Assembly: GCA_964589975.1 (NCBI GenBank)
Contig: CAZPVH010000003.1
Location: forward strand, 5,608-69,607
Source of the DNA: an uncultured Candidatus Saccharibacteria bacterium
Lineage (GTDB): Bacteria > Patescibacteriota > Minisyncoccia > Phycocordibacterales > CSBR16-119
Direction of reading: 5' to 3'
DNA length: 64,000 bases
Position 1 is the stretch's first letter, and each line of letters starts with the position of its first letter. Position numbers and translations under genes: made by a program. The notes below the pieces were generated by a model. It worked only from the letters and a program-made list of their open reading frames with translations. It was not told where the DNA came from and made no database searches. Shown piece by piece: positions 4,933 through 46,249 of the stretch.

Positions 4933-5643
4933 CTATAAAAGTTTATCAGGATTTCCTTTTAAAATATGCTTGAGGCTCTCCGGCCCATGATTTAGATAAA
5001 GATCAAGAATTGATAGGTATGCGGCAAATTCTTTGCCCTTGAATTGCGGATACTCCGGATGCGTAAATTTCTGAAAGATGACTTTGATCCCCGCCTTGTC
5101 ATACTCTTCTGTTTTTAGATATGCTTTCGCCCCGCTTCCGGATAGATACGTATCGGCGCCGCAGACCTTGCATATTTCGAGTGTCACGTCGGTACCACCT
5201 TTTGCCTTTCCCGACAGCGACAACTCAGAGGCTCTCTTTATCTCTGTTTTTATTCCGAGCTTTTCTTTCAAGGCCAAAATCAAATCTAAGTTAAAATCAG
5301 CCAACTTCTCGTGTTTTTTAGCGTAATGGTTTTCCAAAAATTCTAGCGTTTTTGGCGCGTGTGGATGTTTCGCATAATTCTGTCTAAGTGTTGTGAGGTG
5401 CTTTTTGATTATCGGACTCTGCCAATTTATCCTTATATCGCTAATCCTTGCATCCGATGAGTGCTTAAGAAGTGGAATGGTGAGCCAAGTTGGTTTTCCG
5501 GAGGCCAAAATCTTATTCCTATTTTGAACGTTATTTTTTTCAAATTGAACGGTGTCTAAAATAACAAAAACGTCAGCCAAATGCATCTTGTGAAAAAATC
5601 CTAGCCAAGGAAAGGCCTCTGGCTGATGGATGGCAACTATCAT
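4933..5643 (-). CDS. WbqC-family protein (polysaccharide biosynthesis)
   Basis: N-terminus MIVAIHQPEAFPWLGFFHKM matches the WbqC-like family signature. Confidence 0.75.
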   Translation of the reverse strand: MIVAIHQPEAFPWLGFFHKMHLADVFVILDTVQFEKNNVQNRNKILASGKPTWLTIPLLKHSSDARISDIRINWQSPIIKKHLTTLRQNYAKHPHAPKTLEFLENHYAKKHEKLADFNLDLILALKEKLGIKTEIKRASELSLSGKAKGGTDVTLEICKVCGADTYLSGSGAKAYLKTEEYDKAGIKVIFQKFTHPEYPQFKGKEFAAYLSILDLYLNHGPESLKHILKGNPDKLL

Positions 5644-5645
5644 AT

Positions 5646-6314
5646 TTAGAGTTTCAAGCTAACGCGGACCGCCTCAAAAGCTTCGGCATATTTGCATCCG
5701 TTCTCAAAGCCGCGGATCTTGGCTCGGCCTTCGATTGCCTCAATCCAGCGCTCGCCATATTTGGCATGCTGGCTGCGGTGCTCTTTTAGTGACTCAAGCT
5801 TTTGATCAATAGTGTCGGAGATATCAAAATAAACCTGTGCCCGGAATGGGTGGTAAGAACGTCCGGATGGTGGAATAGGTTCGTACATGAAAATGTTGTA
5901 CATGTATCGCGCAGCGGAAATCGTAGCCTGAGCAGTATTTTTATGATCCTGATGAGTATCGAACACCCAGTGAGTAAAGATATACTCCGGCTTGAACTCA
6001 GACATGATCTGATCAAGCGCCTCTACCGTCGATCCGTTATACGGCACGTTCTTGTTCGGGAAATTAAGTACAACGAGGTCGGTCACCCCGAGCTTCGCTG
6101 CGGCTGCTCTGCCTTCGGTCATGGCCTCGTCGACGGTCCGAAGAACTGTCCCATCGAAATTCTGGTATGAGGAATCGGTCATAACGACCATCTTAACCTT
6201 ATGGCCCTCTTTCACAGCCTTGGCTAAAATACCCCCGCAGGCGAGTTCAATATCATCCAAATGCGCCCCTATGGCCAATATATTCATATTGTCTAATCTA
6301 CCCTTTTGGACCAA
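5646..6314 (-). CDS. PIG-L/LmbE-family N-acetylglucosaminyl deacetylase
   Basis: ILAIGAHLDDIELACGG...MVVMTD motif of the PIG-L family. Confidence 0.8.
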   Translation of the reverse strand: MVQKGRLDNMNILAIGAHLDDIELACGGILAKAVKEGHKVKMVVMTDSSYQNFDGTVLRTVDEAMTEGRAAAAKLGVTDLVVLNFPNKNVPYNGSTVEALDQIMSEFKPEYIFTHWVFDTHQDHKNTAQATISAARYMYNIFMYEPIPPSGRSYHPFRAQVYFDISDTIDQKLESLKEHRSQHAKYGERWIEAIEGRAKIRGFENGCKYAEAFEAVRVSLKL

Positions 6315-7053: not shown

Positions 7054-8047
7054 ATAGAGAACTGATATTTTTGATAAGATCGTTAAAATTTTGGTCGATA
7101 GAATAATTCATTTCAATATTTTTCTTTAAATTACGACTGTATTCATTTCGAAGTTCTGGATTTTTAATTAAAGATTCAATTGCGTGCTTCCAGCCCTCTT
7201 TTGTTCCTACCAATAGCCCCGATTTTTTATCCTGGATAATCTGACAGGCCGAAGGTGTAAAATCTGCAACAACTGGGATTCCGAGTTGTGAGAAAACATA
7301 AATCCTTCCCGAATTATTCGACATCTTGAAACGCAGAACATAGTCATTCTTCACATAACTCTCAGGGTTACTGAAGAAAGCCCTAAATGGCCGAGCGAAA
7401 AGTTTGGGTGCCGGAAGCGCCGATGGCGCAATACCAATATCGCACTCTTTTAGATCTTCCAAAAATTTTCCTTCTTCCCACTGTATGTGCTTAACTTTAC
7501 AGATTTTTGGACAATTTTGCGTCCACCTACCCAGCTTGTCTACGTTATAAATAGCGCGCAGTTCTATATCATAAGTCTTGGCAAGTTCATCAAGCGCCCA
7601 CGATGCATCTACCATGGCATCAAGGTGCTGCTTATTCCCGTGATAGCCGATGACTATCTTTTTCTTCTCAACATGAATCTTTTCCGAAACTGGGATATCC
7701 GGGAACATATAATAAATGAAAACATTTTTGTTATATTTGAGAAAAAAATCTCTCTGCTCAATCGAAGAAACAATCAGAAAATCCGCCGCTCGGGCTTCCT
7801 CGCGCTGGCGCGAAAGCGTGACCTTTGGATCGAAAATTCCCGCCAATATTTTAGGATTCATTTGTTTGGCTTTCCTGATTTCTGAGTCTGGTGCCATAAA
7901 TAAAGCGACATCGTAGGCGCGGTAGTTATCCCAAACATTCCTTGTGGCTTCAGACAACCTTTTTACTAGCCCATCCAGAACGATGGTGCCAGCAGCTTTG
8001 TAGTTTGTATTTATGACGAATTTCATGCTGGCCTTATAACTGCCCAA
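7046..8047 (-). CDS. putative glycosyltransferase (GT-B-like), hypothetical
   Basis: C-terminal GIPVVADF...GLLVG region resembles GT1 donor-binding domain; weak. Confidence 0.45.
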   Translation of the reverse strand: MGSYKASMKFVINTNYKAAGTIVLDGLVKRLSEATRNVWDNYRAYDVALFMAPDSEIRKAKQMNPKILAGIFDPKVTLSRQREEARAADFLIVSSIEQRDFFLKYNKNVFIYYMFPDIPVSEKIHVEKKKIVIGYHGNKQHLDAMVDASWALDELAKTYDIELRAIYNVDKLGRWTQNCPKICKVKHIQWEEGKFLEDLKECDIGIAPSALPAPKLFARPFRAFFSNPESYVKNDYVLRFKMSNNSGRIYVFSQLGIPVVADFTPSACQIIQDKKSGLLVGTKEGWKHAIESLIKNPELRNEYSRNLKKNIEMNYSIDQNFNDLIKNISSLYE

Positions 8048-15343: not shown

Positions 15344-17776
15344 ATGGCAAAGAAAAAATTGGATAATAAAAAGAAACCGGCAAAAGATACGCTGGGTAAA
15401 TCAGAAGTTCAAGAATTCAAAAAAATCTTGGGCGTCCACATAAGCGAAGAGACGCGAAATAGCATCGTCGCGATATCCTTTTTCGTGCTAGCCATACTCT
15501 TTATTCTCTCTGGATTCAACCTGGGCGGCGTCGCCGGCAGATTCATATATAAGAACTTGGTACATATATTAGGCGTTGGCTACATTCTCTTGCCGCTAGT
15601 CCTAATTCTTCTGGGCGCATCTTCTTACAAATCTCTCCGACCATCACTCGCCATAACCCATCTAATAAGCGGACTTCTATTCTTTCTCTCGGGTCTCGGA
15701 CTCATACATATAATAAAGGCCGACGCGGCCGGTGTTGTCGGCAAATTCACTTCTTGGCCGTTTGTAAAGCTTTTCGATGTGTACCTGGCTTTTATTTTGC
15801 TTCTGGCGGTCTTCGGTATTTCAATTATCATCATGTTCGACGCTCGCCCGAGTCTTTCTCGCTTCAAGCAAAGACTTAAAGCGCTCTTTGGTTCAAAGGA
15901 AGACGAATACTATGAGGAAGCCGATGAGGCCGACGAGCCAGAAGAGGGGCCGGCACCAGAGCCTCTACCTCTTCCTGAGGAATCAGAGCCGGAAGTTCAA
16001 CGAGAAGAGCCCCCAAAGGACGCGATGGCTTTTACCGCGGCCTGGAAGTCTACTGGCAAATATGTTCCCCCTCCCCTCTCGCTCCTTCGAAAGAATGATC
16101 AGAAAGCCGTAACAGGAGACATCAAAGCTAATTCGAACATCATCAAACGAACACTCGAGAATTTTGACATCGCTGTCGAGATGGACGAAGTCACAGTTGG
16201 ACCTACCGTGACTCGTTTTGCCCTGAAACCGGCTCAGGGTGTCAGACTTTCGCGAATTACCGCCCTTTCTAACGAGCTTCGCCTCGCGCTTGCCGCTCCG
16301 TCTATCCGTATCCAGGCCCCTATCCCAGGACAGAGTCTTGTTGGCATAGAAGTGCCGAATGTAAACAAAGCGCTCGTTGACCTCCGCAGCCTCCTCTCCA
16401 CCAAAGATTTCAAAGAAAGCTCGAAGCCTCTCCTTGTGGCGCTTGGCCGTAGCGTTTCCGGCAAAGCTGAGTATGGAAATATAGGCAAAATGCCGCACCT
16501 CTTGGTAGCCGGCGCGACTGGATCCGGTAAGTCGGTGACCGTTCACACCCTCATTACAAGTCTTATATACAGGAACGGCCCGGAGGATCTTCGTTTCATT
16601 ATGATCGACCCGAAGCGCGTCGAACTCACTCTATATAACGGCATCCCTCACCTCCTTACTCCGGTTATTACGAACCCAAAGAAGGCTATCCTCTCTCTCA
16701 AGTGGGCGGTCTCTGAAATGGAACGACGCTATGACATACTCGAGAACCATGCTGTCCGTGACATTGACTCATATCACAAGAAATTTAACGAGCAGAAAAA
16801 TCCCGATGATGCTAACGCGATGGAGCGTATGCCGTTTATATTGATCTTCATCGACGAACTTGCCGATATCATGCAGAGCTATCCACGGGAACTCGAGTCC
16901 GGTATCGTCCGCCTAGCGCAGATGTCCCGAGCCGTAGGTATTCACCTTACTCTCTCGACCCAGCGCCCATCAGTCAACGTCATCACCGGCCTCATCAAGG
17001 CAAACGTTCCGACGCGTCTCGCGCTCCAGGTCGCCAGCCAGATCGACTCCAGAACCATCCTCGACGCCGCTGGCGCAGAGAAACTCCTCGGAGCCGGAGA
17101 TATGCTCTTCGCTTCCGGCGAAATGGCCCAGCCGCAGCGTATCCAGGGAGCTTTTATTTCCGAAGACGAGGTCAAGGAAGTCGCCGGATACCTCAAGAAT
17201 CGCTACAAGAATGAGCTGGCTGATGACATCAACCTTTCCGAAGGCTCAATCAGCTCAGATAAAAGTATTTTTGACAGCCAAATAGACGACGGAGACAAAG
17301 ACGAGCTTTTTGCCGAGGCCAAAGCATTGGTAATCAAAGAAAAGAAAGCTTCAACCTCATATATCCAGCGCCGCCTAAAGATCGGTTATTCTCGCGCCGC
17401 CAGAATCCTCGACGAGCTTGAACAAGCGGGTGTTGTAGGTCCAGCCAATGGCGCCAAGCCACGCGATATCCTATCTGACGGAAACGAGGTCGCGGCCCCA
17501 AGACCGGCCGCTACGGCTGTCTTTGCGTCTGTTGCTCCAGAGCCTGCCCGTATTCACACAGTCACTAGAACGCTAGACACAGAAGACGAGGAAGACCTGA
17601 CGGACGATGTAATGGAAGATGCCGACGAAACCCCTTACGAAGAAATTCCGGTCGAAGATGAAGTTGGTGGTAACGAAATTGATGAAAGTTCAGAAATACT
17701 TCCAGAAGACAAGCCGCTTGGTCGGGAAGATGACGAGAATAGCGATAATTCGTATGACGAGAACGATAAATATTAA
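15344..17776 (+). CDS. ftsK: DNA translocase FtsK/SpoIIIE
   Basis: N-terminal TM segments, acidic linker, Walker A LLVAGATGSGKSV, FtsK motor and C-terminal gamma wHTH domain. Confidence 0.9.
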   Translation: MAKKKLDNKKKPAKDTLGKSEVQEFKKILGVHISEETRNSIVAISFFVLAILFILSGFNLGGVAGRFIYKNLVHILGVGYILLPLVLILLGASSYKSLRPSLAITHLISGLLFFLSGLGLIHIIKADAAGVVGKFTSWPFVKLFDVYLAFILLLAVFGISIIIMFDARPSLSRFKQRLKALFGSKEDEYYEEADEADEPEEGPAPEPLPLPEESEPEVQREEPPKDAMAFTAAWKSTGKYVPPPLSLLRKNDQKAVTGDIKANSNIIKRTLENFDIAVEMDEVTVGPTVTRFALKPAQGVRLSRITALSNELRLALAAPSIRIQAPIPGQSLVGIEVPNVNKALVDLRSLLSTKDFKESSKPLLVALGRSVSGKAEYGNIGKMPHLLVAGATGSGKSVTVHTLITSLIYRNGPEDLRFIMIDPKRVELTLYNGIPHLLTPVITNPKKAILSLKWAVSEMERRYDILENHAVRDIDSYHKKFNEQKNPDDANAMERMPFILIFIDELADIMQSYPRELESGIVRLAQMSRAVGIHLTLSTQRPSVNVITGLIKANVPTRLALQVASQIDSRTILDAAGAEKLLGAGDMLFASGEMAQPQRIQGAFISEDEVKEVAGYLKNRYKNELADDINLSEGSISSDKSIFDSQIDDGDKDELFAEAKALVIKEKKASTSYIQRRLKIGYSRAARILDELEQAGVVGPANGAKPRDILSDGNEVAAPRPAATAVFASVAPEPARIHTVTRTLDTEDEEDLTDDVMEDADETPYEEIPVEDEVGGNEIDESSEILPEDKPLGREDDENSDNSYDENDKY

Positions 17777-22817: not shown

Positions 22818-23318
22818 ATGAAGAAAATTTTTGCTCTCACGTCACTGTGTGTCCTTTTGGCCCACAGCGGCTTCTGTCAAAGCGGCATCAAGTATCCCGA
22901 CTGCAAGACTGGCGGGGCGGGCGGCTCGCTTATGGTATACGACGACAAGCTCGACGGGACGCTGGGCCATCATCCTTGGATGACCCTCCAAGAAGGCAGT
23001 TCCTGCGGCGAGGTCCTCATGGTCGTTGAGGGTGAGGTTGATTCCTGCGCGGTCTATACCTTGAACGATGTTGCCGGACGAACAGCAACGAACGGACGAA
23101 CCCTCCTCTGGGAAGGCAACGCTTACGACAAGGGCACGTTCATGACGCTCTTCCGAGGCATTGTGCCAAAGGACTATGTCCGCATCGAACAAGAAGTGAT
23201 GACGGACGGAATCTTCGGCGGGAAAAATCCGCCGAAAGCCATCCACCTCATCATCGGCACGGCCAAAGGAGAGTCGGTGATGGTCGTTTCCGCCTGCAAG
23301 TGCATGAGCGAAAACTAA
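22818..23318 (+). CDS. hypothetical secreted Cys-containing protein (GC-rich gene)
   Basis: Signal peptide MKKIFALTSLCVLLAHSGFCQSG; local GC content clearly above neighbours. Confidence 0.55.
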   Translation: MKKIFALTSLCVLLAHSGFCQSGIKYPDCKTGGAGGSLMVYDDKLDGTLGHHPWMTLQEGSSCGEVLMVVEGEVDSCAVYTLNDVAGRTATNGRTLLWEGNAYDKGTFMTLFRGIVPKDYVRIEQEVMTDGIFGGKNPPKAIHLIIGTAKGESVMVVSACKCMSEN

Positions 23319-23347: not shown

Positions 23348-23399
23348 TCTTTTATATTTTTATAAACTTATCCATCACTTCCTTCTCTACTTCATCTCT
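23348..23399. repeat. direct repeat, copy 1: duplicated 3' end and terminator tail of the 909-aa ATPase gene
   Basis: 23362-23399 matches 24620-24657 at 37 of 38 positions, and the preceding T-tracts also match. On the minus strand it would encode ...RDEVEKEVMDKFIKI* versus the ATPase C-terminus ...RDEVEKEVMDKFMKI*. Confidence 0.7.
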
Positions 23400-23489
23400 T
23401 TGCCAGCCTCATTAATGAAGGTAGATTTAGTAATCATTGACAAATTACCAACATTGTGCTACCATATACGCAGACCAAAAACGAAACAC

Positions 23490-23975
23490 ATGAAAACCTT
23501 CACAACCATACTGTTGACAGTCTTCTGTCTCTTCACAAGTCGCGCCACGGCCCAAACGGGCTCGATCAGATCCCTCTTGGAAAAGAACGGTTTTGAGTGG
23601 CAATCAAGCCTTGCCCAACCAAGCGATTTCGACAACGAGAGCGACCTGGGCGCACAAACCGAGGTTACGAAACTGAAACGAGAAGAAGATGAGAAAGTGA
23701 CGACAACCGGCGTCCTGAGTTTAATCGATACGCTCAATTTCACACCGCTCAGCCTGAAAGAGTCACTTCAATACCGTGAGGACACCTACATACCCGACAT
23801 CATTGATGTTTATCACGAAAGAACGGTTGTGTTTTTCGGTTCAAGTGTTCAGGTTAGAGGGAAAACCTACTACCCAATACTACGTTGGCAGGAAGGAAGC
23901 AAGAAAGGAATAGTCACGATGACAGACAATCCTTTCTGCTGCAAAGAAGAGGTGGACATTGTAGTGAAACACTGA
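23490..23975 (+). CDS. hypothetical secreted protein
   Basis: Start chosen at the internal Met giving signal peptide MKTFTTILLTVFCLFTSRATAQ; the ORF track extends upstream to 23400. Confidence 0.5.
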   Translation: MKTFTTILLTVFCLFTSRATAQTGSIRSLLEKNGFEWQSSLAQPSDFDNESDLGAQTEVTKLKREEDEKVTTTGVLSLIDTLNFTPLSLKESLQYREDTYIPDIIDVYHERTVVFFGSSVQVRGKTYYPILRWQEGSKKGIVTMTDNPFCCKEEVDIVVKH

Positions 23976-24103
23976 AGAATGCGCGCCAGCCACGACAACG
24001 TGGCTGGCGTTTACTTTTTATCTATTGTTTTACACTTGCGTAAGCGGCCGGACTACACTACCATTGTAGTTATTAATAAGAGAAAGACGCTTTTTAAAAA
24101 TAT

Positions 24104-24559
24104 ATGAATACTAAAATCGTAGGGGGTCTATTGGCTCTAGTGCTAATTGTTCAAGTGGTGCTGGTCGGAGCAGGAACAAAGATGTCGGAAAAGATTAGCA
24201 GTATAAATGTTCAACAAGCTTCTATAATTTCTAAGGTTGATCAGGTGGCAGCGCTTGGCGCAAGCGGGGTCCTCAATCCTGGACCAACACCTGGAGGAAT
24301 TACAATCATAACCTATTATCTTTACAATAGGTGCACAGTTACAACCTATTCAGATGCTGGCACCCCTAGCACGTCTCAGGGCTATACGGTTAGTACTCCA
24401 AGCGGTCAGGGCTGTGACACATCTGGACCTCAATCTGCAACGGCAGGCACAGGCACAGGTATAACAAATAATATTGTTCCCCTTAGAGACGGCGGGGTAA
24501 GCATAAGAAATTCATCTGACATAGTAAGTACTGAAATAAAGTTTATTAAGTCACGTTAA
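24104..24559 (+). CDS. hypothetical membrane-anchored Thr/Ser/Gly-rich protein
   Basis: N-terminal TM/signal anchor MNTKIVGGLLALVLIVQVVLVGAG. Confidence 0.5.
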   Translation: MNTKIVGGLLALVLIVQVVLVGAGTKMSEKISSINVQQASIISKVDQVAALGASGVLNPGPTPGGITIITYYLYNRCTVTTYSDAGTPSTSQGYTVSTPSGQGCDTSGPQSATAGTGTGITNNIVPLRDGGVSIRNSSDIVSTEIKFIKSR

Positions 24560-24565
24560 AAGAAA

Positions 24566-24608
24566 TACATATAAAAGACCTCTTTATCATAAAAGAGGTC
24601 TTTTATTT
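24566..24608. terminator. bidirectional hairpin terminator between gene 24104-24559 and the ATPase gene
   Basis: aaaagacctctttatcataaaagaggtctttt perfect hairpin with T/A tracts on both sides. Confidence 0.6.
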
Positions 24609-24657
24609 TTTATATCTTCATAAACTTATCCATCACTTCCTTCTCTACCTCATCTCT
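24599..24657. repeat. direct repeat, copy 2: authentic 3' end of the ATPase gene
   Basis: Partner of 23348-23399; the two copies bracket a ~1.2-kb cassette containing the two small secreted-protein genes at 23490-24559. Confidence 0.7.
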
Positions 24658-27339
24658 CGGTCGTCCATACTTGAGGAATGAAAGTTCTTTGAGAGAGTCG
24701 ACAATATCTGGATTTCCTGCTGGTAAGTCTTGTGTACGAATATTGAATGGCTTAACTGGCGTACCGTCGACGAGCATGGACACATACGCATTACGGTTAT
24801 CTAGCTTCATGATGTCTTGAACGGTAAAGACTGGGTCCAAACGCTTCTGCAAAATCTCCGCATCTTCGGAACTAATACGGAATATTGCCATCGAACCAAC
24901 GTTACCGAGTACGGCATTTCGAATATCGTCCGAGAGTTGTGACAAATACTGGTGGGCAACATTAAGACCGAGCTTGTATTTTCGTGCTTCAGAGAGAATC
25001 GAAGAAATAGATGGGGTGGTGAAATTCTGAAACTCGTCTATGTAGAGATAAAACGGTGGAAAATTTGCGCCGTGCGAGTCGGCACGAGAAAGTGCTGCCA
25101 TTTGGATCTTTCCTACCAGAATGAGACCTAAGAGGTTTGCATTGATATCTCCAAGTCTTCCCTTCGAAAGGTTTACCAGTAAGATTTTCTTGTTATCAAT
25201 AATCTCGCGGAAATTAAAGCTTGATTTCTCCTGAGCGATAATTGGACGCATAATTTCGTTAGAAATAAATGTGTCGAATTTGGACGTAATATACGGAACG
25301 AAGTTCTCTAGTCCTTGCTCACCTGTAGTCGCTTCAGCGGTTTTCCAGAATTGCTTGATGATTGGGTTCGTACAACGTTCTAGCTTCATATCACGGAATT
25401 TCTTGTCAGAGAGAACACGACCAATTTCAAGAATAGTATTACCTGTGGACGGATCAGACATCACAAGTCCGGCAGAATTCTTGAAATACTGCTCGAAAAG
25501 TGGTCCACCGGCGGTCTTCATATCAAAGAGCTGACTAAAAATACCGAGGAGTTCGTTAATCACAAGCGTCTTCTGTTCCGGACGCTCTGGATCAAACTCG
25601 AGCATATTGAGGCCCATTGGCCGCGCAGTTGAGGCTGGATCGAAATAAATGACGTCATCAATGCGATGTTTTGGGATATAAGAAAGGATTTTCTGGATGT
25701 CGGATCCGTGTGGATCTATGTAGCAAACACCGTCACCCCGCTCGATATCCTGACGAATCATGTTCATCATAATACCGGTCTTACCAGTTCCAGTCTGGCC
25801 GATAACATAAAAATGCCTCATGCGATCGAGCTCCTGGAGGTAAATATCGGTATCAACTCCGCGATGCGTGTTGATACCGATTTGAACGCCGCCACCAACC
25901 ATATTGAGCGGCGCAGACGCGGAACCTGCTTTTGACTCTTTGAGCTCTGGTGAAGACGCAAGACCTACCGGGAAATGCACGAGCGTCGAGAGTTCTTTGA
26001 AATTGAGCGGCAAGGCCGAAGCTTCGGTCGGCAGGCGGAATGAAAATGAATGGAGAAACTGATCCAAATGCTTGTCGTCGACCTTTTTAAACTTGAGACT
26101 GTTTGAGCTTGGCTTCTCGAACTGAGAGAACGCCGATTCAATGTTTGCAATTATCTCGCCTGTTCGAATGGCGCTATCTGACGAAGCCACGACACGGATA
26201 TTCGCCAGCATGATGGTCGACTTGATCTTCTCGGTAATATTTTCGACAGCTTTGTCGTCGATATCCTTTTCTTCCTTCTCTTCTGTCTTCTTGGGTCCTT
26301 TCCAAAGCATTGTTCCAAAGCTCTTTAGCTCTTTCTTTACGTCGCCAAACTCATCCAATATATGCTTAAGTTTTTCGCCTTTTTTCACCTTATCAAGATA
26401 TCCGGAGAATTTCTTAATGTATCTGTCCCCCGCCGGCATGATGACGAACTGGAGCGCCGCGCCTTCTTTCGTTTTATCAAGCTTCGAGAAGGCGTTCAGG
26501 ATCGTATTCATCGGATCATGATCAAACTCATCGTGAGTTTTGAGTGGAAACACCTCATGATCGCCAAACTCTGCCGATGCCGCCATAATCGAGCCGCCTG
26601 AGTTAAAGACATTGTAATCATTCGTAACTTCGGTGATCTTTGCATTCTTGTAAAATGACAGTATCTGTTTTTCAAGCAGAGTTTTTCGATCTTTTGGAAT
26701 GGAGACATAAAAAACGATTTCCGGTGAATCATGTGATACGGCAATCTCAATTGTGAAATATTGCTTATATTTATTATTCTCCCCATTCGATATGGTCTGC
26801 ATACCGGCATAAAACTGTTCCATAGCGGAAAGAAATTCTTTGAAAGTTTTTTCTTTCTCTTCTGAAGCTGGCAGAGTTACTTCAAAAAGCGCGAGGTTGA
26901 GAGATTTCCATTCTGGCGAACTCTCGGAGAGCCCGGGGACTTGATGAGAAGTGTGGAGGAACTGAATCAAGAATCTGTGAAAGTCGTCCTCAAGATGCGG
27001 ATTATGCATACGGGAAACGATATCCATGGTGTTTTTTATACCGTGCTCTAGGAGTAGGCCATAAAGCTCTTCGATTTGACTATCATGTTCTTCTGGCTTG
27101 AGGGCCAGGACCATGCTTTCGGCCTCTTTCTCTGGCACACGGTAGCTTTCATGAAGCACTTCGGCTGAGTCGGCTTTTTTGTACGCGGAAAGCGTCTCAT
27201 GAGTCACTTCTTCGCGAGATTTTTCAAGCTTAGCACCAGCGTTCACTCTCTCTTGTTCGGCAACTTTCTCGCGCAAATAAGCGAGCTCCTCTTCAGGAGT
27301 CTTGAACGCGCCTTTTTCCATGATCTGAGCCCCTTCCAT
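24610..27339 (-). CDS. large P-loop ATPase of the FtsK/HerA/TraG(VirD4) superfamily with ~430-aa N-terminal domain of unknown function
   Basis: Walker A GQTGTGKTG followed by DPHGS; Walker B LYIDEFQNF; downstream AHQYLSQL motif as in type-IV coupling/HerA-like ATPases; no TM segments. Confidence 0.7.
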   Translation of the reverse strand: MEGAQIMEKGAFKTPEEELAYLREKVAEQERVNAGAKLEKSREEVTHETLSAYKKADSAEVLHESYRVPEKEAESMVLALKPEEHDSQIEELYGLLLEHGIKNTMDIVSRMHNPHLEDDFHRFLIQFLHTSHQVPGLSESSPEWKSLNLALFEVTLPASEEKEKTFKEFLSAMEQFYAGMQTISNGENNKYKQYFTIEIAVSHDSPEIVFYVSIPKDRKTLLEKQILSFYKNAKITEVTNDYNVFNSGGSIMAASAEFGDHEVFPLKTHDEFDHDPMNTILNAFSKLDKTKEGAALQFVIMPAGDRYIKKFSGYLDKVKKGEKLKHILDEFGDVKKELKSFGTMLWKGPKKTEEKEEKDIDDKAVENITEKIKSTIMLANIRVVASSDSAIRTGEIIANIESAFSQFEKPSSNSLKFKKVDDKHLDQFLHSFSFRLPTEASALPLNFKELSTLVHFPVGLASSPELKESKAGSASAPLNMVGGGVQIGINTHRGVDTDIYLQELDRMRHFYVIGQTGTGKTGIMMNMIRQDIERGDGVCYIDPHGSDIQKILSYIPKHRIDDVIYFDPASTARPMGLNMLEFDPERPEQKTLVINELLGIFSQLFDMKTAGGPLFEQYFKNSAGLVMSDPSTGNTILEIGRVLSDKKFRDMKLERCTNPIIKQFWKTAEATTGEQGLENFVPYITSKFDTFISNEIMRPIIAQEKSSFNFREIIDNKKILLVNLSKGRLGDINANLLGLILVGKIQMAALSRADSHGANFPPFYLYIDEFQNFTTPSISSILSEARKYKLGLNVAHQYLSQLSDDIRNAVLGNVGSMAIFRISSEDAEILQKRLDPVFTVQDIMKLDNRNAYVSMLVDGTPVKPFNIRTQDLPAGNPDIVDSLKELSFLKYGRPRDEVEKEVMDKFMKI

Positions 27340-27340
27340 C

Positions 27341-27452
27341 CCGTTAGTGACAGGTCGCGGTCGTCATTCCGCCACCAGCAATTAAATTTATAATCTTGGT
27401 CATAGTTTCTTACATATGCATTTTACCCGCACGCGACCGCGGTCACTAACGG
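27341..27452. promoter_or_regulatory. long imperfect inverted repeat flanking a 68-nt AT-rich spacer, immediately upstream of the 909-aa ATPase start codon
   Basis: Arm 1 at 27341-27363 (ccgttagtgacaggtcgcggtcg) and arm 2 at 27432-27452 (cgcgaccgcggtcactaacgg), which contains the 10-bp palindrome GACCGCGGTC. Arm 1 begins 2 nt after the start codon on the minus strand. Confidence 0.6.
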
Positions 27453-27558
27453 GATCCATATGGATAATATTGTAACATGAAAGAAAAAGACCCTTGTTGC
27501 CAAGCAAAGCGAAAGAGCCGGCAGAACCGGCTCTTAAGTAAACTTCTTACACAGGCCT

Positions 27559-27795
27559 TTACGATTTCGACAAGCTTTCAGGGGAATACCATTCGGGAAC
27601 AGTACTCCAATTGTCGTCCATAAGCACAGGAACGTAGCGCTTATCCATCGGCGTTTTTGTCTCAACCAGCGAGACAGCCACGACCCGACCTTTGCGATGG
27701 CCCACTTTCACAAGTTCGCCAGCTGTGAATTCTCCGAACTTGAAAGCCATTTCTTGAACCTTAACGCCAGTAGCATTTTCCGTGGCTGTTGCCAT
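27559..27795 (-). CDS. hypothetical small protein
   Basis: 78-aa ORF followed by a hairpin terminator; no recognised family and not IF-1-like. Confidence 0.4.
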   Translation of the reverse strand: MATATENATGVKVQEMAFKFGEFTAGELVKVGHRKGRVVAVSLVETKTPMDKRYVPVLMDDNWSTVPEWYSPESLSKS

Positions 27796-29658: not shown

Positions 29659-30135
29659 TTAAAACGGGATGTCTTCTGGATTTATATCATCATCCGGATA
29701 CTCAATAGTCTCAAGCTCTGGAGCGCGCATTGGAGCATCCTGCTCTGGAGAATTGGCTGGCGCGGAGTTATTTCCTCCGCCATAGTTCCCTGCCCCTCCT
29801 CCCATCCCCCCAGCTCTCGGGCCAAACTGAATGGTGTCGGCGATGATTTCAGTTCTATACTTCTTGGCTCCATCGGCGTCCCAGCTTCTAGTCTGCATGC
29901 GGCCTTCCACGAGTATAGAAGAACCCTTCTTCATGTACTGAGCAACTATCTCTGCCTGGCGGCCGAAAGTCACAACATTGTGAAAATCAGTTGATTCTTG
30001 CTTGGCGCCGTTCTTGTCCTTCCAAGTTCGGTTTGTAGCGACGCTGAAATTTGTGACTTTGATACCCGACGGAAGGGCTTTCATCTCGGGATCGCGGGTC
30101 AGATTCCCAATGACCATGGCTTTGTTGAGATACAT
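29659..30135 (-). CDS. ssb: single-stranded DNA-binding protein
   Basis: OB-fold SSB N-terminus, Gly-rich linker and acidic tail DDDINPEDIPF. Confidence 0.9.
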   Translation of the reverse strand: MYLNKAMVIGNLTRDPEMKALPSGIKVTNFSVATNRTWKDKNGAKQESTDFHNVVTFGRQAEIVAQYMKKGSSILVEGRMQTRSWDADGAKKYRTEIIADTIQFGPRAGGMGGGAGNYGGGNNSAPANSPEQDAPMRAPELETIEYPDDDINPEDIPF

Positions 30136-30301
30136 CCCGTTTGAGATAGCAAATTATTAATTTGCGTATCCTTGCTTAAATTTTGATAATTTTTGCGACC
30201 GTTGGTTCATTATACTTTTTGTCATAATTTCTAACCATGGGATCTCTAACGGGATACATAAGTTAGAAGTTATTTGATAACGGTAACTCCATTGTAGGAG
30301 A

Positions 30302-37984: not shown

Positions 37985-38569
37985 CTACATGAGCTGTGTT
38001 GCGGCAAGTGATTTATTGAGCTCTTTGATAATAGATTTTTTCGTCGAAGTTAGCCGAGCGAGCGTCTCAGTGGTGAACGGACTCTTCGCAAGTCCGCCGA
38101 GCGCGTCGGCGTCGCCCCAATACCCGAGCCCTGAAAGAATTTTTAGAACAAGGAGAGCCTCAATACTCTCCATTTCATCCTGCTTCGGATGAGTATTCGA
38201 GGTGAATTCAAAAGCTGCTACCAACTCGTCGAAAAGGTGCTCGTGCGGTTCTTCTTCCGGCGCAAGCTTGGCGATTAGCTGGAGTCCGCGGATACGCGAA
38301 CTTGTCGAGAGGCTCTTTTTAGAATTCAAATCATGAATCGGCCTGGCGGAAACAAGCCGCCAGAAAGTCTTGCCTTTCACAAGGCTCGCATCGATGTATT
38401 TGAAATCCTGAACGAAGTAACGGAGGCGGGATTCCATTTTCCGGATTCCCATGGCTTTCGCGCGAATAACGCCAAAGTCTTTTGTAAACAGATGAAATGT
38501 CTTATCCGCCTCCCCGGTGTTTCGAGTCGACATCACAAACGCTTCAGTGTGATAAATAGTGTGAGACAT
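37985..38569 (-). CDS. recO: DNA repair protein RecO
   Basis: N-terminal OB-fold region resembles RecO (TEAFVMSTRNTGEADKTFHLFTKDFGVIRAKAMG). Confidence 0.65.
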   Translation of the reverse strand: MSHTIYHTEAFVMSTRNTGEADKTFHLFTKDFGVIRAKAMGIRKMESRLRYFVQDFKYIDASLVKGKTFWRLVSARPIHDLNSKKSLSTSSRIRGLQLIAKLAPEEEPHEHLFDELVAAFEFTSNTHPKQDEMESIEALLVLKILSGLGYWGDADALGGLAKSPFTTETLARLTSTKKSIIKELNKSLAATQLM

Positions 38570-41500
38570 TATTTCTCGATTTTTGTTTCCTCACCTCCCC
38601 ATTTAATTTCTTTGATTCCGGCGGTTTTCTTTAGCTCGTCTTCAAAGCCGCTAATTATATCCTTCTGGCTTTCTGGAATGGTTAGATTTACGAGATCGCT
38701 TGGTGACAAATTCTGATCCTTTCGCATACCTTGTACGCCTCGCAAGAACTTTCGGAAATCACCCTCACGCCTCAACTCTGGTGTAATCTCATGATTAAGC
38801 AATGTGGTTGTAGTCAAATTTCCATCGAAAATAACTTTTCTAACATTTAATTCCTCACTTACAACTACTGCCGTACCCCCGGAGAGAGAAATTACAGAAC
38901 TTATGCTTTCAAGCGGTTGACTAACTTCAATTCCTGCTTTTTTGCGCTCTTGTAAACCATTTGTGACTACTACTCTGGCGTCCCTCATCTCATCGATAAC
39001 TCTTTGATCAACTTTTTTACTTTCGGGCCATTTCGCAAGATGTACACTTTCGACATCATTCGACAATTTGAGCTTCTGCCAAATGTCCTCTGCTGCAAAA
39101 GGCGCGAATGGAGCCATAAGTTTGGCGACATCAACAAGTACCGCGTAAAGCGTGCGCTTTGCATCAGCATCTCCATCCTTGAGCCTGTCTCGAGAACGTC
39201 GTAGATACCAAGTTGATAGATCGTCGATAAAATCTCGAAGTGCTCTGACAGGTTCAAGAAGCTTGTAGTTATCGAGATTTTCCGTCATCGAGTTCGTAAG
39301 CTCTTTCAGCCGCTCCATAATCCAGATATCGAGCACATTGGAACTCTTCGGAACTTCGGAAGTCTCCAGGCTCTTGTCGCGGTAAAGCTCATAAAAGGCC
39401 AAAACGTTATAGAAAAGATTAAAAACTTTATTTCGAAGCTCAGCCACGGTCTTCTCGTCAAAGTTCTTCGAATCTCCCGGCTGGTTCACCGAATACATCC
39501 AGAGGCGAAGCGTATCAACGCCATATTTGTCCATCATTTCCCAAGGATTGACGATGTTTCCGATAGACTTCGACATCTTCTTTCCTTTCGAGTCCAGGAT
39601 GTGCCCCAAGCAGATACAGTTTTTGTAAGCCTGGCCTTTGCCCATGAGGACGCCAACGGCGTGGAGCGTATAGAACCATCCACGAGTTTGGTCGACGGCT
39701 TCAGAAATGAAATCTGCTGGATAACCCGCACCATCAACATATTCTTTATTCTCAAACGGATAGTGGTGTTGAGCAAAAGGCATGGCGCCGGAATCGAACC
39801 AGACATCCATAACTTCTTTTACTCGACGAAATTCCTTTCCATTTTTAACGAGCACGACGTCGTCGATAAATGGACGATGAAGATCAAATTCCTTTTTCGT
39901 GCGAGTGTCTACATATACTGGAAACACTTCCCCGTTTTCGATTTCATGGAAAAGATGCTCCGCGGCATAGTCGTTGCCGAAGCCGCGCAACAGTTTGATT
40001 CCCATTTCATCTGTACCCTGATGAGCAAAACAAACAATAGTCTTGCCAGCATGTTTTTCAATTATATCCTCGAGGAAATCCTTGACCCTGACCTGCAGGT
40101 CTGCCCAGCTCTCGCCTGTGCCTCCACGCTTGAAAACAAATCTCTCATCGGGAGTCATTGCCTTATAGGCGTCGCGCTCAGCTTTGATGCTTGGGTCATG
40201 CTGAGTCTTTTCTTCCCAATTACCACTGCTGATTTCGGCAAGGCGCTCATCCGTGATCATTTCCTTACCGGACAATTTCAAATACGGCTCAGCAGTTTGT
40301 CTGGCACGGAGAATTGGCGAACAATAGACAACGTCAATATCATGGTCGGTAAGCTTCTTGGCCGTTTCTTTTGCCTGCTTTTGTCCGAGTTCAGTCAATG
40401 GATGAGCTTCGCGAGCACTCGAAGAAACCAGGCCAACATTGGCATCTGACTGTCCGTGGCGAACAAAAATTATTTTAGTTATGGATTGCTTGGTATGTTT
40501 CTTGAGTTCCTCGACGCTTCCGACAACCCACTTCTCACCATCTTCGGCTACCCAAACCGGAAGAGGCGTGCCCCAATAACGCTCACGAGAAATAGCCCAG
40601 TCTTTGATTTCGCGTAGCCATTCGCCAAAACGACCTTCTTTGATATGAGACGGTTCCCAGTTAATTTTTTCGTTTTCTTTCACCAGCTCGTCACGAAGCT
40701 CGGACATACGGATGTACCAAGAATCTCGCGCATAATATATGAGCGGAGTTTTACATCGCCAGCAGTGCGGATATGTGTGTTCGTAGTTTTTCTTTCCAAA
40801 AAATAGTCCACGTGCGGTAAGGTCGTTTATAACATCGACGGCAAGTGTTGGTTTGCCGTTTTCGTCTTTCTCCATTGCAAATCGTCCAGAGAAAAAGGAA
40901 GTTTCAGGAAGAAACTTTCCATCAACGCCGACAACGTGTTCTTTCGGAAGACCAACTTTCGTCCCAAGCTCGAAGTCATCCTGTCCGTACATGGGCGCAA
41001 TGTGCACAATTCCTGTTCCGTCTTCGGTGGTGACGAAGTCGGCTGAGTAAACTTTATGAGATTTATCGTTTGGTTTGATGAAGTCGTAAAGGGGCTCATA
41101 TGAAAGACCGACAAGATCTGAACCTTTCACTTCCCCAATAACTTCATAACCATCTTTTAGAGCCTCAATTCGACTCTTGGCAATGATTAGAATCTCTTCT
41201 CCAACCTTGGCCTTTACATAATCAATCTTTCCGCCAACTGCCAACGCGACATTTCCAGGCAGCGTCCAAGGTGTAGTAGTCCAAGCAAGAACATAAGTGT
41301 TCTCTTCCCCTAGAACTTTAAACTTCACGAATATCGAAAGATCTTTTACATCTTCATACCCCTGCGCAAGCTCATGCGACGCAAGTGGTGTTCCGCAACG
41401 TGAGCACCATGGCACGATTCTATAATCTTTATAAAGTAGTCCACGTTCATTTACTTTTGCCAAAACATTCCAAAGAGACTCGATGTATGAATTGTCGAAT

Positions 41501-41952
41501 GTGAAATATGCATTCTTCTTGTCTACCCAGTAGCCGATACGGTCAGTAAAGTCTTCCCAGTCCTTGATGTATTGAAAAACGGATTCCTTGCACTCCTTAT
41601 TAAACTTCTCAATTCCGTATTCTTCGATAGCTTTTTTCGAGTTAAGTCCTAGTTTCTTTTCAATCTGAAGTTCCACCGGGAGTCCGTGAGTATCCCAACC
41701 GCCCTGACGACGCACATGAAAGCCTTGCATAGTTTTATAGCGTGGGATCACGTCCTTGAAAGCCCGAGCTTCCAAGTGATGTAGTGCTGGTTTCGCGTTC
41801 GCTGTCGGAGGTCCTTCGAAAAAGACGAATTCACCAGAAGGGCTTTCCTTTTGGAGGGTTTTATCAAAAATCTTATTGTCCTGCCAAAATTTTAGGACTT
41901 CTTCTTCCTTCCGAGCCGTGTCGGATTTTAGTTCCGGTTCCTTTTCCATCAT
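38569..41952 (-). CDS. ileS: isoleucine--tRNA ligase carrying an inserted histidine-phosphatase (PGM-like) domain
   Basis: IleRS hallmarks (GWDTHGLPVE, WTTTPWTLPGN, ISRERYWGTP, VWFDSG, KMSKS) plus ~200-aa insert with RHG and HQG motifs. Confidence 0.9.
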   Translation of the reverse strand: MMEKEPELKSDTARKEEEVLKFWQDNKIFDKTLQKESPSGEFVFFEGPPTANAKPALHHLEARAFKDVIPRYKTMQGFHVRRQGGWDTHGLPVELQIEKKLGLNSKKAIEEYGIEKFNKECKESVFQYIKDWEDFTDRIGYWVDKKNAYFTFDNSYIESLWNVLAKVNERGLLYKDYRIVPWCSRCGTPLASHELAQGYEDVKDLSIFVKFKVLGEENTYVLAWTTTPWTLPGNVALAVGGKIDYVKAKVGEEILIIAKSRIEALKDGYEVIGEVKGSDLVGLSYEPLYDFIKPNDKSHKVYSADFVTTEDGTGIVHIAPMYGQDDFELGTKVGLPKEHVVGVDGKFLPETSFFSGRFAMEKDENGKPTLAVDVINDLTARGLFFGKKNYEHTYPHCWRCKTPLIYYARDSWYIRMSELRDELVKENEKINWEPSHIKEGRFGEWLREIKDWAISRERYWGTPLPVWVAEDGEKWVVGSVEELKKHTKQSITKIIFVRHGQSDANVGLVSSSAREAHPLTELGQKQAKETAKKLTDHDIDVVYCSPILRARQTAEPYLKLSGKEMITDERLAEISSGNWEEKTQHDPSIKAERDAYKAMTPDERFVFKRGGTGESWADLQVRVKDFLEDIIEKHAGKTIVCFAHQGTDEMGIKLLRGFGNDYAAEHLFHEIENGEVFPVYVDTRTKKEFDLHRPFIDDVVLVKNGKEFRRVKEVMDVWFDSGAMPFAQHHYPFENKEYVDGAGYPADFISEAVDQTRGWFYTLHAVGVLMGKGQAYKNCICLGHILDSKGKKMSKSIGNIVNPWEMMDKYGVDTLRLWMYSVNQPGDSKNFDEKTVAELRNKVFNLFYNVLAFYELYRDKSLETSEVPKSSNVLDIWIMERLKELTNSMTENLDNYKLLEPVRALRDFIDDLSTWYLRRSRDRLKDGDADAKRTLYAVLVDVAKLMAPFAPFAAEDIWQKLKLSNDVESVHLAKWPESKKVDQRVIDEMRDARVVVTNGLQERKKAGIEVSQPLESISSVISLSGGTAVVVSEELNVRKVIFDGNLTTTTLLNHEITPELRREGDFRKFLRGVQGMRKDQNLSPSDLVNLTIPESQKDIISGFEDELKKTAGIKEIKWGGEETKIEK

Positions 41953-45019: not shown

Positions 45020-46249
45020 TTAGATATCTTTCATGATAATAGAATTTTGCCCAGCTAGTATCCAGTGTTTTTTGTCCTTTGTTACTTTTAGATTATTGAG
45101 CCATGCGTCTTCGATATAAATTACCTTTTCGACGCCGTCATTGAAATCGAGATGTATAACCTCAGTTTTCTGATTCTCGAAAGATCCTTTCCTTAAATAC
45201 ATTATTTTCGTTGGACTTATTACTTGAACATATTCTCGTGAAAAATTGTCATCGAACGCGCGACGCTGCAGAGTCTTGCCATTCTGGTCAACAATCTTTG
45301 CCACACTGAGTGGTTCCATCTCTCCCGGACCGTCTATCTCCTCCCCCACCATTGCGATTAGTTTAAGCTCCTGATCAAGCTCTACTCCGCCCATAAGCAT
45401 GCCCGAGGTCTCGCCGATATCCGCCACGAATTTGTTTGGCACATCAACTATGTAATCAAATGACCCATCGTCAAATCCGGCATTTACCCTAGCAATCTTT
45501 TCTGGCTCTATCCATTCAGCAAACCGCAGAGTCGACGACGGCATATCTATTCCAAGATTTGTATCGGCAGTTTTTGTTTGAGTGTCCCAAATGGCCAAGA
45601 TTCGTCCACGACCTGCTTCATATAGATTATCGATGGAGTTTTCTTGGTAGCCGAGTATACGTTTTGAGTCGCTGTACCATGCGTAGGCACCGTCGTACTG
45701 TTTGTCTGAGATTGTAGAAATTGTTTTAGCTCCTAGGTCGATTACACGAATACCCTTGTTCGTGTTATAAGCAAACTTCTTCTCGTCTGGTGAAAAGAAT
45801 CCTGTAAACGTCATATTCGCATCTGCATAGCTGTCTACTTTGCCGTCCGAAAGACGTGTGATGAAAATCTTGTCATTCTCTACGGACGCAAGCATGTTGC
45901 TGGAGCTCCATAATCCGAGCGGAGACCCGGGGATTTCCCACACTCTTCCGTCAGAGAGATCTGCAATGAAAATCATATTGTCGAATCGTGTCCCCTCTTC
46001 AAAGACTCCCCCAAACATAAGATAACTTTCATCTGGCGATAACTCCAAGTATCCGCCAAGCTTGTTTATCCCGAGGCCTAGCTCCGTAACCGGACGATTC
46101 CAAATATTTGCTTTTGCATTAAAGCCTTCATTTTTGGCAGGTTTTTCTTCGGTAGGAACAGGTGTCTCCACTTCAGTATTTTTAAAATACCTGAAGCCGA
46201 AAAAAGCGACAACTGCAATGACGACAATTGTTAGGATTGATTTAATCAT
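45020..46249 (-). CDS. membrane-anchored beta-propeller (TolB/PD40-like) protein, hypothetical
   Basis: N-terminal TM helix and repeated beta-strand-rich blades. Confidence 0.5.
   Translation of the reverse strand: MIKSILTIVVIAVVAFFGFRYFKNTEVETPVPTEEKPAKNEGFNAKANIWNRPVTELGLGINKLGGYLELSPDESYLMFGGVFEEGTRFDNMIFIADLSDGRVWEIPGSPLGLWSSSNMLASVENDKIFITRLSDGKVDSYADANMTFTGFFSPDEKKFAYNTNKGIRVIDLGAKTISTISDKQYDGAYAWYSDSKRILGYQENSIDNLYEAGRGRILAIWDTQTKTADTNLGIDMPSSTLRFAEWIEPEKIARVNAGFDDGSFDYIVDVPNKFVADIGETSGMLMGGVELDQELKLIAMVGEEIDGPGEMEPLSVAKIVDQNGKTLQRRAFDDNFSREYVQVISPTKIMYLRKGSFENQKTEVIHLDFNDGVEKVIYIEDAWLNNLKVTKDKKHWILAGQNSIIMKDI

Follow-up and report, generated by a model that had tools for sequence, protein, structure and literature searches.

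The 64-kb window analysed here (64,000 nucleotides, nt, of contig CAZPVH010000003.1, assembly GCA_964589975.1, from an uncultured Candidatus Saccharibacteria bacterium) contains a gene on the reverse strand, at 24610..27339, that encodes an ATPase of 909 amino acids (aa). The open reading frame (ORF) was confirmed in the ORF list of the window, and its start codon agrees with that of orthologues beginning MEG. An inverted repeat lies over the 5′ end of the gene, a 50-nt direct repeat marks its 3′ end, and three small ORFs are found alongside. The original prediction, made from the sequence alone, had placed the ATPase in the FtsK/HerA/VirD4 superfamily and called its locus structurally unusual. 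Our analysis retained the superfamily and does not support a special module: the ATPase is a core gene kept in synteny, and the repeats are footprints of independent insertions.

The motifs and profile matches of the ATPase placed it among the VirD4/HerA/FtsK-type P-loop proteins. The Walker A motif GQTGTGKT (aa 514-521; 25777..25800, reverse strand) is invariant in 40 sequences, as are D768 and E769 of the Walker B motif YLYIDE (aa 764-769; 25033..25050, reverse strand). These two motifs, together with DPHG (aa 542-545) and AHQY (aa 795-798), are all invariant in the 40-homologue family alignment, the mean column identity of which is 67%. Pfam matches to TrwB_AAD_bind (25.5 bits, cut-off 20.5; aa 507-546) and TraG-D_C (23.2 bits, cut-off 22; aa 762-824) are short and marginal, each spanning just 40-60 residues. 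The Pfam match to DUF87/HerA fell under its cut-off, those to nSTAND were weak, and there was none to FtsK, a genuine copy of which is encoded elsewhere in the window (15344-17776). Among the NCBIfam models, TraD, CedD, TrbC and CD1115-type VirD4 matched in part, all far under their cut-offs (32-45 bits against 366-648 for the TraD models), and helicase_HerA scored 17.5 bits against a cut-off of 970. The VirB4 profiles CagE_TrbE_VirB and AAA_10 gave no Pfam or NCBIfam match at E ≤ 0.1. The protein has no transmembrane segment, as had been predicted: its highest 19-residue Kyte-Doolittle mean is 1.52 and falls inside the ATPase core, with no segment in the N-terminus, and the ATPase therefore lacks a membrane anchor.

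This ATPase is not an isolated protein. A large protein database held one identical entry (P0001, which carries PF26449, i.e. DUF8128, and PF10412) and over 1000 homologues, of which the top 120 are 899-950 aa long, 57-83% identical and collinear over their full length, more than 100 of them at 98-100% coverage. According to the precomputed database annotation, PF26449 covers the N-terminal part of P0001 and of all 120 listed homologues, and the ATPase half is labelled PF10412, PF12696 or PF02534. The source names of these proteins, given by PGAP, are [quoted passage not shown] and "TraM recognition domain-containing protein". When the N-terminal 480 aa served as query for an exhaustive HMMER search, 1065 clusters (50% identity) were returned at E ≤ 1e-3, and since their complete members measure about 800-1100 aa, the N-terminal domain essentially always travels with the ATPase. 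Short family members lack the first ~145 residues, and representatives of 689-823 aa align only from query positions ~84-164. Judged by its sequence, the ATPase is an ordinary, typical member of a catalogued, functionally uncharacterised family that joins DUF8128 to a motor like that of type IV coupling proteins (T4CPs).

The domain layout was modelled with AlphaFold2 using family alignments, which yielded a mean predicted local distance difference test score (pLDDT) of 72 for the full-length protein, and a pLDDT of 80 and predicted template modelling score (pTM) of 0.73 for aa 1-485. The N-terminal ~430 aa had been described as coiled-coil-rich and devoid of a recognisable domain, a description that gave way to a two-part layout in which the region is not coiled coil. 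Only aa 1-145 (26905..27339, reverse strand) are purely helical in the model (helices H15-131); this extension is missing from the ~800-aa members, and the phage protein SPO1 gp27.4 aligns from aa 143. The following segment, aa 146-470 (25930..26904, reverse strand), forms the alpha/beta core of DUF8128, with a predicted fold like that of the VirB4 N-terminal domain. The P-loop translocase domain of the VirD4/VirB4/HerA clade occupies aa 485-870 (24730..25887, reverse strand), as delimited by Pfam, NCBIfam and Foldseek (DotL, HerA, TrwB). Between its Walker A and B strands the model places 7-8 helices (aa ~589-715), at the place where coupling proteins carry their all-alpha domain; this correspondence is by position, without a residue-level superposition on the all-alpha domain of TrwB.

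Foldseek searches of the PDB with the full-length model gave TrwK/VirB4 of plasmid R388 as the best match (~900 alignment columns, E 3e-10), followed by DotL (3e-6), HerA (1.6e-5) and TrwB (3.7e-5). The N-terminal domain alone had 11 PDB matches under E 1e-3, all of them TrwK/VirB4 chains (E 6e-6 to 3e-4, probability 1.0, ~400 columns), so at the level of the predicted fold the VirB4-like match is consistent and exclusive. Modelled in this way, the ATPase looks like a VirB4-type N-terminal domain fused to a coupling-protein-type motor. It shares with TrwB, VirD4, TraD and DotL the P-loop core, a predicted helical insertion between the motifs, the short TraG-D_C and TrwB_AAD_bind matches and the fold matches to DotL and TrwB. 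It differs from them in having a soluble N-terminal region of ~470 aa in place of a transmembrane domain, in the lack of neighbouring relaxase or type IV secretion system (T4SS) genes, and in NCBIfam scores far under the cut-offs.

One may ask whether the protein is simply the VirB4 of a T4SS, i.e. its assembly or energising ATPase. The layout of an N-terminal domain followed by an ATPase domain is that of VirB4/TrwK, which provides the best structural matches to the whole architecture and the sole significant one for the N-terminal domain, and a length of ~900 aa without a transmembrane segment fits the VirB4s of monoderms. We nonetheless regard this identity as improbable, given that the VirB4 models failed to match, that there is no likeness to VirB4 at the sequence level, and that the family-level matches are all to TraD, TraG or TrwB, i.e. 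T4CP-like signatures. The Patescibacteria VirB4s form a clade of their own and adjoin TrsD, VirB3 and VirB6 (PMC12102498), whereas no TrsD, VirB3 or VirB6 was seen within 6-10 kb of the ATPase gene, 80 of the 84 loci having been probed only with the neighbour proteins of the window; nor does the gene stand beside VirB8.

The chromosomal setting of the gene was compared across related genomes. A pattern scan of GTDB, with one genome per species, yielded at least 583 confirmed relatives, of which 80 loci were kept, all from metagenome-assembled genomes (MAGs). Where these loci carry a taxon name, it is of the Paceibacteria type (Nomurabacteria, Paceibacterota, Taylorbacteria, Yonathbacteria, Campbellbacteria, Parcubacteria) or "uncultured Candidatus Saccharibacteria". 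Together with a minimal set of housekeeping genes, the names of the relatives assign the window to a Patescibacteria genome of the Paceibacteria type. Neighbours were counted over 84 loci, many of them ending at contig ends (compared loci carry labels such as L001). Upstream of the ATPase, map was found in 57/84 and adk in 49/84; downstream, ndk occurred in 62/84, mostly directly adjoining, and a betaCASP nuclease gene in 55/84. The usual string of genes is thus adk-map-[ATPase]-ndk-betaCASP, and DUF2238 is also among the neighbours. Across these genomes the ATPase is conserved at 50-58% identity, equal to map and above adk and ndk. The GC content of its region is in line with the surroundings. 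These results show that the ATPase belongs to the vertically inherited chromosomal core of Paceibacteria and is not the cargo of a mobile element.

The same comparison bears on the idea that the gene is a canonical conjugative coupling protein left by an integrated element, either an integrative and conjugative element or a plasmid remnant. TrwB_AAD_bind and TraG-D_C matches are what such a gene would show, and repeats at both ends could resemble element boundaries. We give this explanation next to no credence: the chromosomal position is identical over class-level divergence, which effectively refutes it, the protein lacks a transmembrane anchor, the GC content does not deviate, and the repeats are accounted for by a hairpin on the start codon and by a 1.26-kb insertion. 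Moreover, no T4SS genes were detected among the ten large window ORFs scanned and no relaxase or integrase gene nearby, in agreement with the earlier statement that other T4SS and conjugation genes are missing from the neighbourhood. Genes for a relaxase or for mating-pair formation were likewise absent from nine related loci with Pfam tables, the 80 GTDB loci having been probed as stated above. The other large ORFs of the window encode housekeeping or envelope functions, including FtsK, RecA, several tRNA synthetases, EF-G and an O-antigen-ligase-like protein.

The gene usually has a promoter of its own. Among 41 orthologues with a mapped start (from L001-L084 and L206-L208), 35 displayed a TAnnAT hexamer similar to a -10 box, mostly preceded by TG and separated from the ATG by 4-12 nt (mostly 6-9); none of these 35 had a Shine-Dalgarno sequence ahead of the ATPase. 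Because the -10 box abuts the ATG with no Shine-Dalgarno sequence, the ATPase is normally leaderless and independently transcribed. The window carries the corresponding box TACAAT (27469..27474, reverse strand) 9 nt before the first ATG, matching the leaderless promoter of the orthologues. A terminator-like hairpin (27511..27533, reverse strand; GAGCCGG-TTCTG-CCGGCTC followed by TTTCGCTTTG) isolates the transcription unit of the ATPase from a 78-aa ORF that precedes it. Leaderless transcription seems, from these sequences, to be common in these Paceibacteria. In L001, ssb has the same arrangement of -10 box and ATG.

The 78-aa ORF itself (27559-27795, reverse strand) lies between map and the ATPase and belongs to no Pfam family. 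Its counterpart in L004 (7553-7804, 83 aa, 41% identity) holds the same position, and no other locus has one. L003, L206 and L208 have differing small genes at this junction.

Beyond the Paceibacteria, relatives of the ATPase were found in phages. A tblastn search against phage genomes recovered proteins of this architecture from Bacillus phages of the SPO1 type and from a small number of other phages, and phrog_5156 matched the ATPase at 1.4e-88, in agreement with relatives of the SPO1 type. The alignment with SPO1 gp27.4 covers aa 143-902 (23% identity), and PF26449 is present in these phage proteins too. Fold matches of the N-terminal domain in BFVD were to Bacillus phage proteins, down to 1e-17 (phages G, JL and Slash), and include a phage "component of type IV transporter system". 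In SPO1, the gene adjoins gp27.3 ("replication initiation by nicking") and a gene for a partition-like protein. The pairs 0305phi8-36 orf200/orf201 and SPO1 gp27.3/gp27.4 have been read as a MobC-like relaxase plus a coupling ATPase without transmembrane segments, said to form a dispensable "DNA translocation operon" (Pathria et al. 2012, PMC3357382). The ATPase of the window shares with SPO1 gp27.4 and orf201 the two-part architecture, PF26449 and the missing anchor. The phage genes belong to a dispensable operon that also encodes a MobC-like nickase and a partition/MreB-like protein, whereas the Paceibacteria gene is alone among housekeeping genes and its product has an extra helical N-terminus of ~145 aa. 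No other association than that with the phage nickase hints at a function, and by analogy it would point to DNA as the substrate.

These phage homologues raise the question of whether the ATPase is a domesticated phage gene or an anti-phage defence ATPase (MADS mad8-like, HerA-associated or STAND-like). PADLOC reported mad8 (1.5e-13) and HerA models, the nSTAND matches are weak, and the homologues in Herelleviridae and the phrog_5156 match would suit a phage origin. The defence matches are limited to the generic ATPase core, no partner defence genes adjoin it, and the IMG/VR contigs contained no protein relative. Defence genes have a patchy distribution and reside in variable islands, whereas this ATPase is near-universal, syntenic and conserved like map. 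A role in defence or an origin in a phage is, in our judgement, very unlikely.

At the 5′ end of the gene, the long inverted repeat noted previously is indeed present. Its 14-nt arms (27338-27351 and 27442-27455) are 100% complementary and accompanied by a second helix of 8 bp, and its fold has -51.5 kcal/mol (z = -3.5). It belongs to a hairpin of ~120 nt on the start codon of the ATPase (27337..27459, reverse strand), similar to a miniature inverted-repeat transposable element (MITE), which is supported by empty orthologue sites, covariance-model matches and stem pairing. The hairpin runs from an upstream ATG (27459-27457) over the terminal inverted repeats ATCCCGTTAG...CTAACGGGAT to the ATG of the ATPase (27339-27337). 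Orthologues without the repeat show the empty site TACAAT-N7-9-ATGGAAGG, whereas the window reads TACAAT-N9-ATGG[ATCCCGTTAGTGACCGCGGTCGC...GACCGCGACCTGTCACTAACGGGAT]GGAAGG. Given these empty sites and the ATGGA on both sides, about 120 nt were inserted exactly on the start codon. A related hairpin with two compensatory stem changes occupies the same site in L004, in a 64%-identical orthologue.

Further copies were retrieved with a metagenome 16-mer scan and then with a covariance model derived from the copies already in hand, and 16 complete copies of ~115-130 nt were examined. Besides the window, four lineages carry the hairpin at the ATPase start, namely L004, L019, L029 and L034; the copies in these four are at 7878-8011 (L004), 5871-6011 and 4012-4150 (L019), 5869-6011 (L029) and 5599-5740 (L034). 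Others lie in L003 (4313-4444), L023 (2394-2534), L071 (7566-7708, reverse strand), L082 (8782-8929), L115, L139, L151, L161 and L176. Copies at the start of ssb were found in L003 and in the window itself (30125-30267), and the starts of ndk, rplC, a secY-like gene (L023) and six other ORFs are likewise occupied. Each of the 16 complete copies lies directly against an ATG and is oriented like the gene that follows. In 14/16 the pentamer ATGNA stands on both sides and follows the second codon of the gene itself (ATGGA, ATGAA or ATGTA); the exceptions are L082, with GCGAA at the left, and L115, with a small deletion in the 5′ arm. The ten terminal pairs of the stem are nearly invariant and pairs 11-14 covary (TA/AT, GC/AT, AT/GC, CG/TA).

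The ssb copy of the window (reverse strand) is diverged, with a covariance score of 22.7 bits, and lies on the ssb ATG (30135-30133). At this same site L003 and L207 have a different hairpin subfamily, the L207 copy being interrupted by a contig end, and L001 has none, which suggests recurrent insertion at the same start codons. In L035 (~1854-1935) a decayed half-copy retains only the left arm GAATCCCGTTAGAAGCC, ~70 nt upstream of the start of a secY-like gene (METAWNKIRAIF). The elements seem to erode in place.

Searches for a known identity of the hairpin were negative. Rfam gave no match to the window at the gathering threshold or to the leader at E ≤ 10, and scans for tRNA and tmRNA also returned nothing, so the inverted repeat belongs to none of the known RNA families. 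The element had no match in IMG/VR, we found no description of it in the literature, and no long, autonomous version occurs among 208 loci. Judging from the sequence, we dropped an attC-like hairpin (the order of the GTT...AAC motifs is opposite to that of attC), an IS200/IS605-like one (a target duplication is present, unlike in IS200/IS605) and one resembling a bulge-helix-bulge intron (no bulge-helix-bulge is evident). We regard the hairpin as a MITE-like element with a strong association to start codons, or possibly as an element acting at the RNA level. The gene behind it may be translated through RNase III processing to a leaderless mRNA, through re-initiation coupled to an upstream ORF, from an internal promoter or by shunting. 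The hairpin is unconnected with the function of the ATPase.

At the opposite end of the gene, 50 nt are repeated directly (23350-23399 and 24608-24657; 47/50 matches, 94%; 1258 nt apart). The copy at 24608..24657 (reverse strand) is the true 3′ end of the ATPase, reading EVMDKFMKI and stop (RDEVEKEVMDKFMKI with the stop). The copy at 23350..23399 (reverse strand) is an orphaned relic of that end, reading EVMDKFIKI and stop (RDEVEKEVMDKFIKI with the stop), and adjoins the terminator of a 166-aa ORF. The duplicated segment comprises the last ~15 codons, the stop and ~6 nt. The duplication of the 3′ end 1.2 kb downstream, as first described, thus stands, whereas that of the terminator tail does not: the hairpin terminators beside the two copies are unrelated in sequence. 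The terminator between the ATPase and the neighbouring 151-aa ORF is a bidirectional hairpin with a 15-bp stem (24571..24606), scored on both strands.

The three small ORFs on this side each have an N-terminal hydrophobic signal or anchor, as had been proposed. The first (22818..23318, forward strand; 166 aa) encodes an ORFan secreted protein, lies between the relic and ndk, and is outside the ATPase system. The other two fill the segment between the repeats (23400..24607, forward strand), each with its own terminator: 23490-23975 (161 aa, signal peptide) and 24104-24559 (151 aa, N-terminal anchor). Neither the 208 loci nor the rest of the window contained a homologue of any of the three. They had no match either in a database of 5.8 billion clusters, a result that lends weak support to their ORFan status, since the query was concatenated and did not return the proteins' own sequences, which the database may lack. 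In two of the closest relatives (ATPase 80-82% identical), ndk follows 32-61 nt after the ATPase, and other relatives have different small genes at either junction. With no homologues, and with relatives in which ndk comes directly after the ATPase, the three secreted proteins do not form a conserved module. The idea that they might co-occur with the ATPase did not survive the neighbourhood comparison. The outcome that was to speak against the original prediction, a well-characterised family with non-conserved neighbours, was found in part: these neighbours are not conserved with the ATPase, and the family is catalogued, not well characterised. The junctions of the ATPase with map and with ndk are hot spots for lineage-specific insertions.

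The simplest reading of the 3′ end is that the 1258-nt unit bracketed by the 50-nt repeats, with its 161-aa and 151-aa ORFans, was inserted there with duplication of ~50 nt, e.g. by single-crossover (Campbell-type) integration of a circular DNA bearing a homologous gene end. The duplication could also be an artefact or chimera of MAG assembly.

Elsewhere in the window, a 1127-aa class I tRNA synthetase (38569-41952, reverse strand) resembles IleRS (tRNA-synt_1 and Anticodon_1) and is unusual in carrying a histidine-phosphatase domain (His_Phos_1) inserted at aa 494-657. Proteins of 577 aa (61709-63442, reverse strand) and 409 aa (45020-46249, reverse strand) had no Pfam match at E ≤ 1e-5.

Taken together, the explanation we favour, tentatively and at somewhat less than even chances, is that of a soluble DUF8128 core ATPase working like a type IV coupling protein, with the hairpin, the ORFans and the 3′ repeat as unrelated later insertions. 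As a member of its superfamily, the ATPase would form an ATP-driven ring motor that translocates a substrate. This substrate may be DNA or a nucleoprotein fed to an envelope channel, as the linkage to a relaxase in phages and the T4CP signatures would suggest. The fold match would have the motor dock to a membrane complex via its VirB4-like N-terminal domain instead of a transmembrane anchor. The most plausible channel would be the T4SS-like machinery that Patescibacteria encode on the chromosome without a relaxase, or some other channel for DNA transport. In favour of a coupling-type motor outside conjugation, Patescibacteria encode 5,713 homologues of VirD4-type T4CPs, only 148 of these homologues being near virB4, and relaxases are almost absent (Quinonero-Coronel et al. 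2025, PMC12102498).

Several points weigh against a coupling function of this kind. The likeness to the VirB4 N-terminal domain is structural only (TM-scores of 0.30-0.35, sequence identity of 7-9%), VirB4 appeared in no sequence or profile search, and PDB searches, whether by the sequence alone or by a profile of 40 sequences, brought up DotL and TrwB at no more than the Walker-A level. Given these modest TM-scores and the absence of VirB4 from such searches, the link to VirB4 is evidence at the fold level only. The full-length model is also poor at aa 770-866 of the ATPase core, and the DUF8128 family, albeit catalogued, is one without a functionally characterised member. No membrane partner gene lies beside the ATPase in any locus examined, with the same scope for the 80 GTDB loci as above. 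In addition, the T4CP homologues of Patescibacteria occur in 2,918 of 3,035 genomes and VirB4 in 2,417 (PMC12102498). In S. epibionticum the T4CP homologue is reported to be non-essential, whereas other T4SS genes are essential (PMC12102498). The wider spread of the T4CP homologues and the dispensability of the S. epibionticum one argue against an obligatory partnership with a T4SS, and the authors did not exclude an exaptation of these proteins (PMC12102498). By signatures and PGAP names, not confirmed by accession, our ATPase appears to fit this class of orphan T4CP homologues, with which it shares the VirD4/TraG signatures, a chromosomal location far from virB4, the lack of a relaxase and a near-universal presence, theirs being in the phylum. 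The DUF8128 N-terminal domain, the VirB4-like fold, the synteny with map and ndk and the leaderless promoter are not part of that description (PMC12102498).

The main rival holds that the ATPase is a cytoplasmic nucleic-acid motor like HerA or FtsK, independent of any T4SS and active in repair, replication restart, chromosome handling or the processing of imported DNA for nucleotide salvage. Such a role is possible, and we rate it below that of a coupling ATPase. Housekeeping-level conservation would agree with it, as would a neighbourhood that includes TatD, ssb, adk, ndk, the betaCASP nuclease, a LOG-like gene, recA and ftsK, the missing membrane anchor, and the presence of T4CP homologues in ~500 more Patescibacteria genomes than VirB4 (PMC12102498). 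The protein also shares with HerA the clade within the ASCE superfamily, the sub-threshold DUF87 match and the fold match. It differs from HerA, however, in having no HAS-barrel, no NurA-like or defence partner and no adjoining nuclease, and in an N-terminal domain with a predicted VirB4-like fold. The HerA NCBIfam score is far under its cut-off, and the window already encodes a genuine FtsK. The signatures favour TraD/TraG/VirD4, and the N-terminal domain resembles one that docks to T4SSs. Finally, the neighbours come from universal operons (S6-ssb-S18, secY-adk-map), and their proximity may mean nothing.

A broader pair of linked readings is, to us, of doubtful standing: DUF8128 would be a third, soluble branch of the VirB4/VirD4 family with a housekeeping role in Paceibacteria, and the hairpin an undescribed family that targets start codons or an RNA-level mechanism. 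If such a third branch exists, it may move DNA into or out of the cell, to scavenge nucleotides or to interact with a host, independently of conjugation. What we infer here as new is the VirB4-like fold of DUF8128, the placement between map and ndk with leaderless expression, and the family of start-codon hairpins.

These findings have implications for the understanding of Patescibacteria, which account for much of the diversity of bacteria and rely on hosts to supply nucleotides and lipids. The start-codon hairpin is the more unexpected by-product of the analysis, and the peculiarities of the locus are insertion scars. The VirB4-like fold of DUF8128 offers a concrete docking hypothesis for a coupling protein without a transmembrane segment, and links proteins of the Candidate Phyla Radiation (CPR) with the "DNA translocation operons" that large Bacillus phages carry as dispensable units. 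Conserved like methionine aminopeptidase and near-universal in the class, this motor ATPase is a good target for learning how these cells move DNA or effectors.

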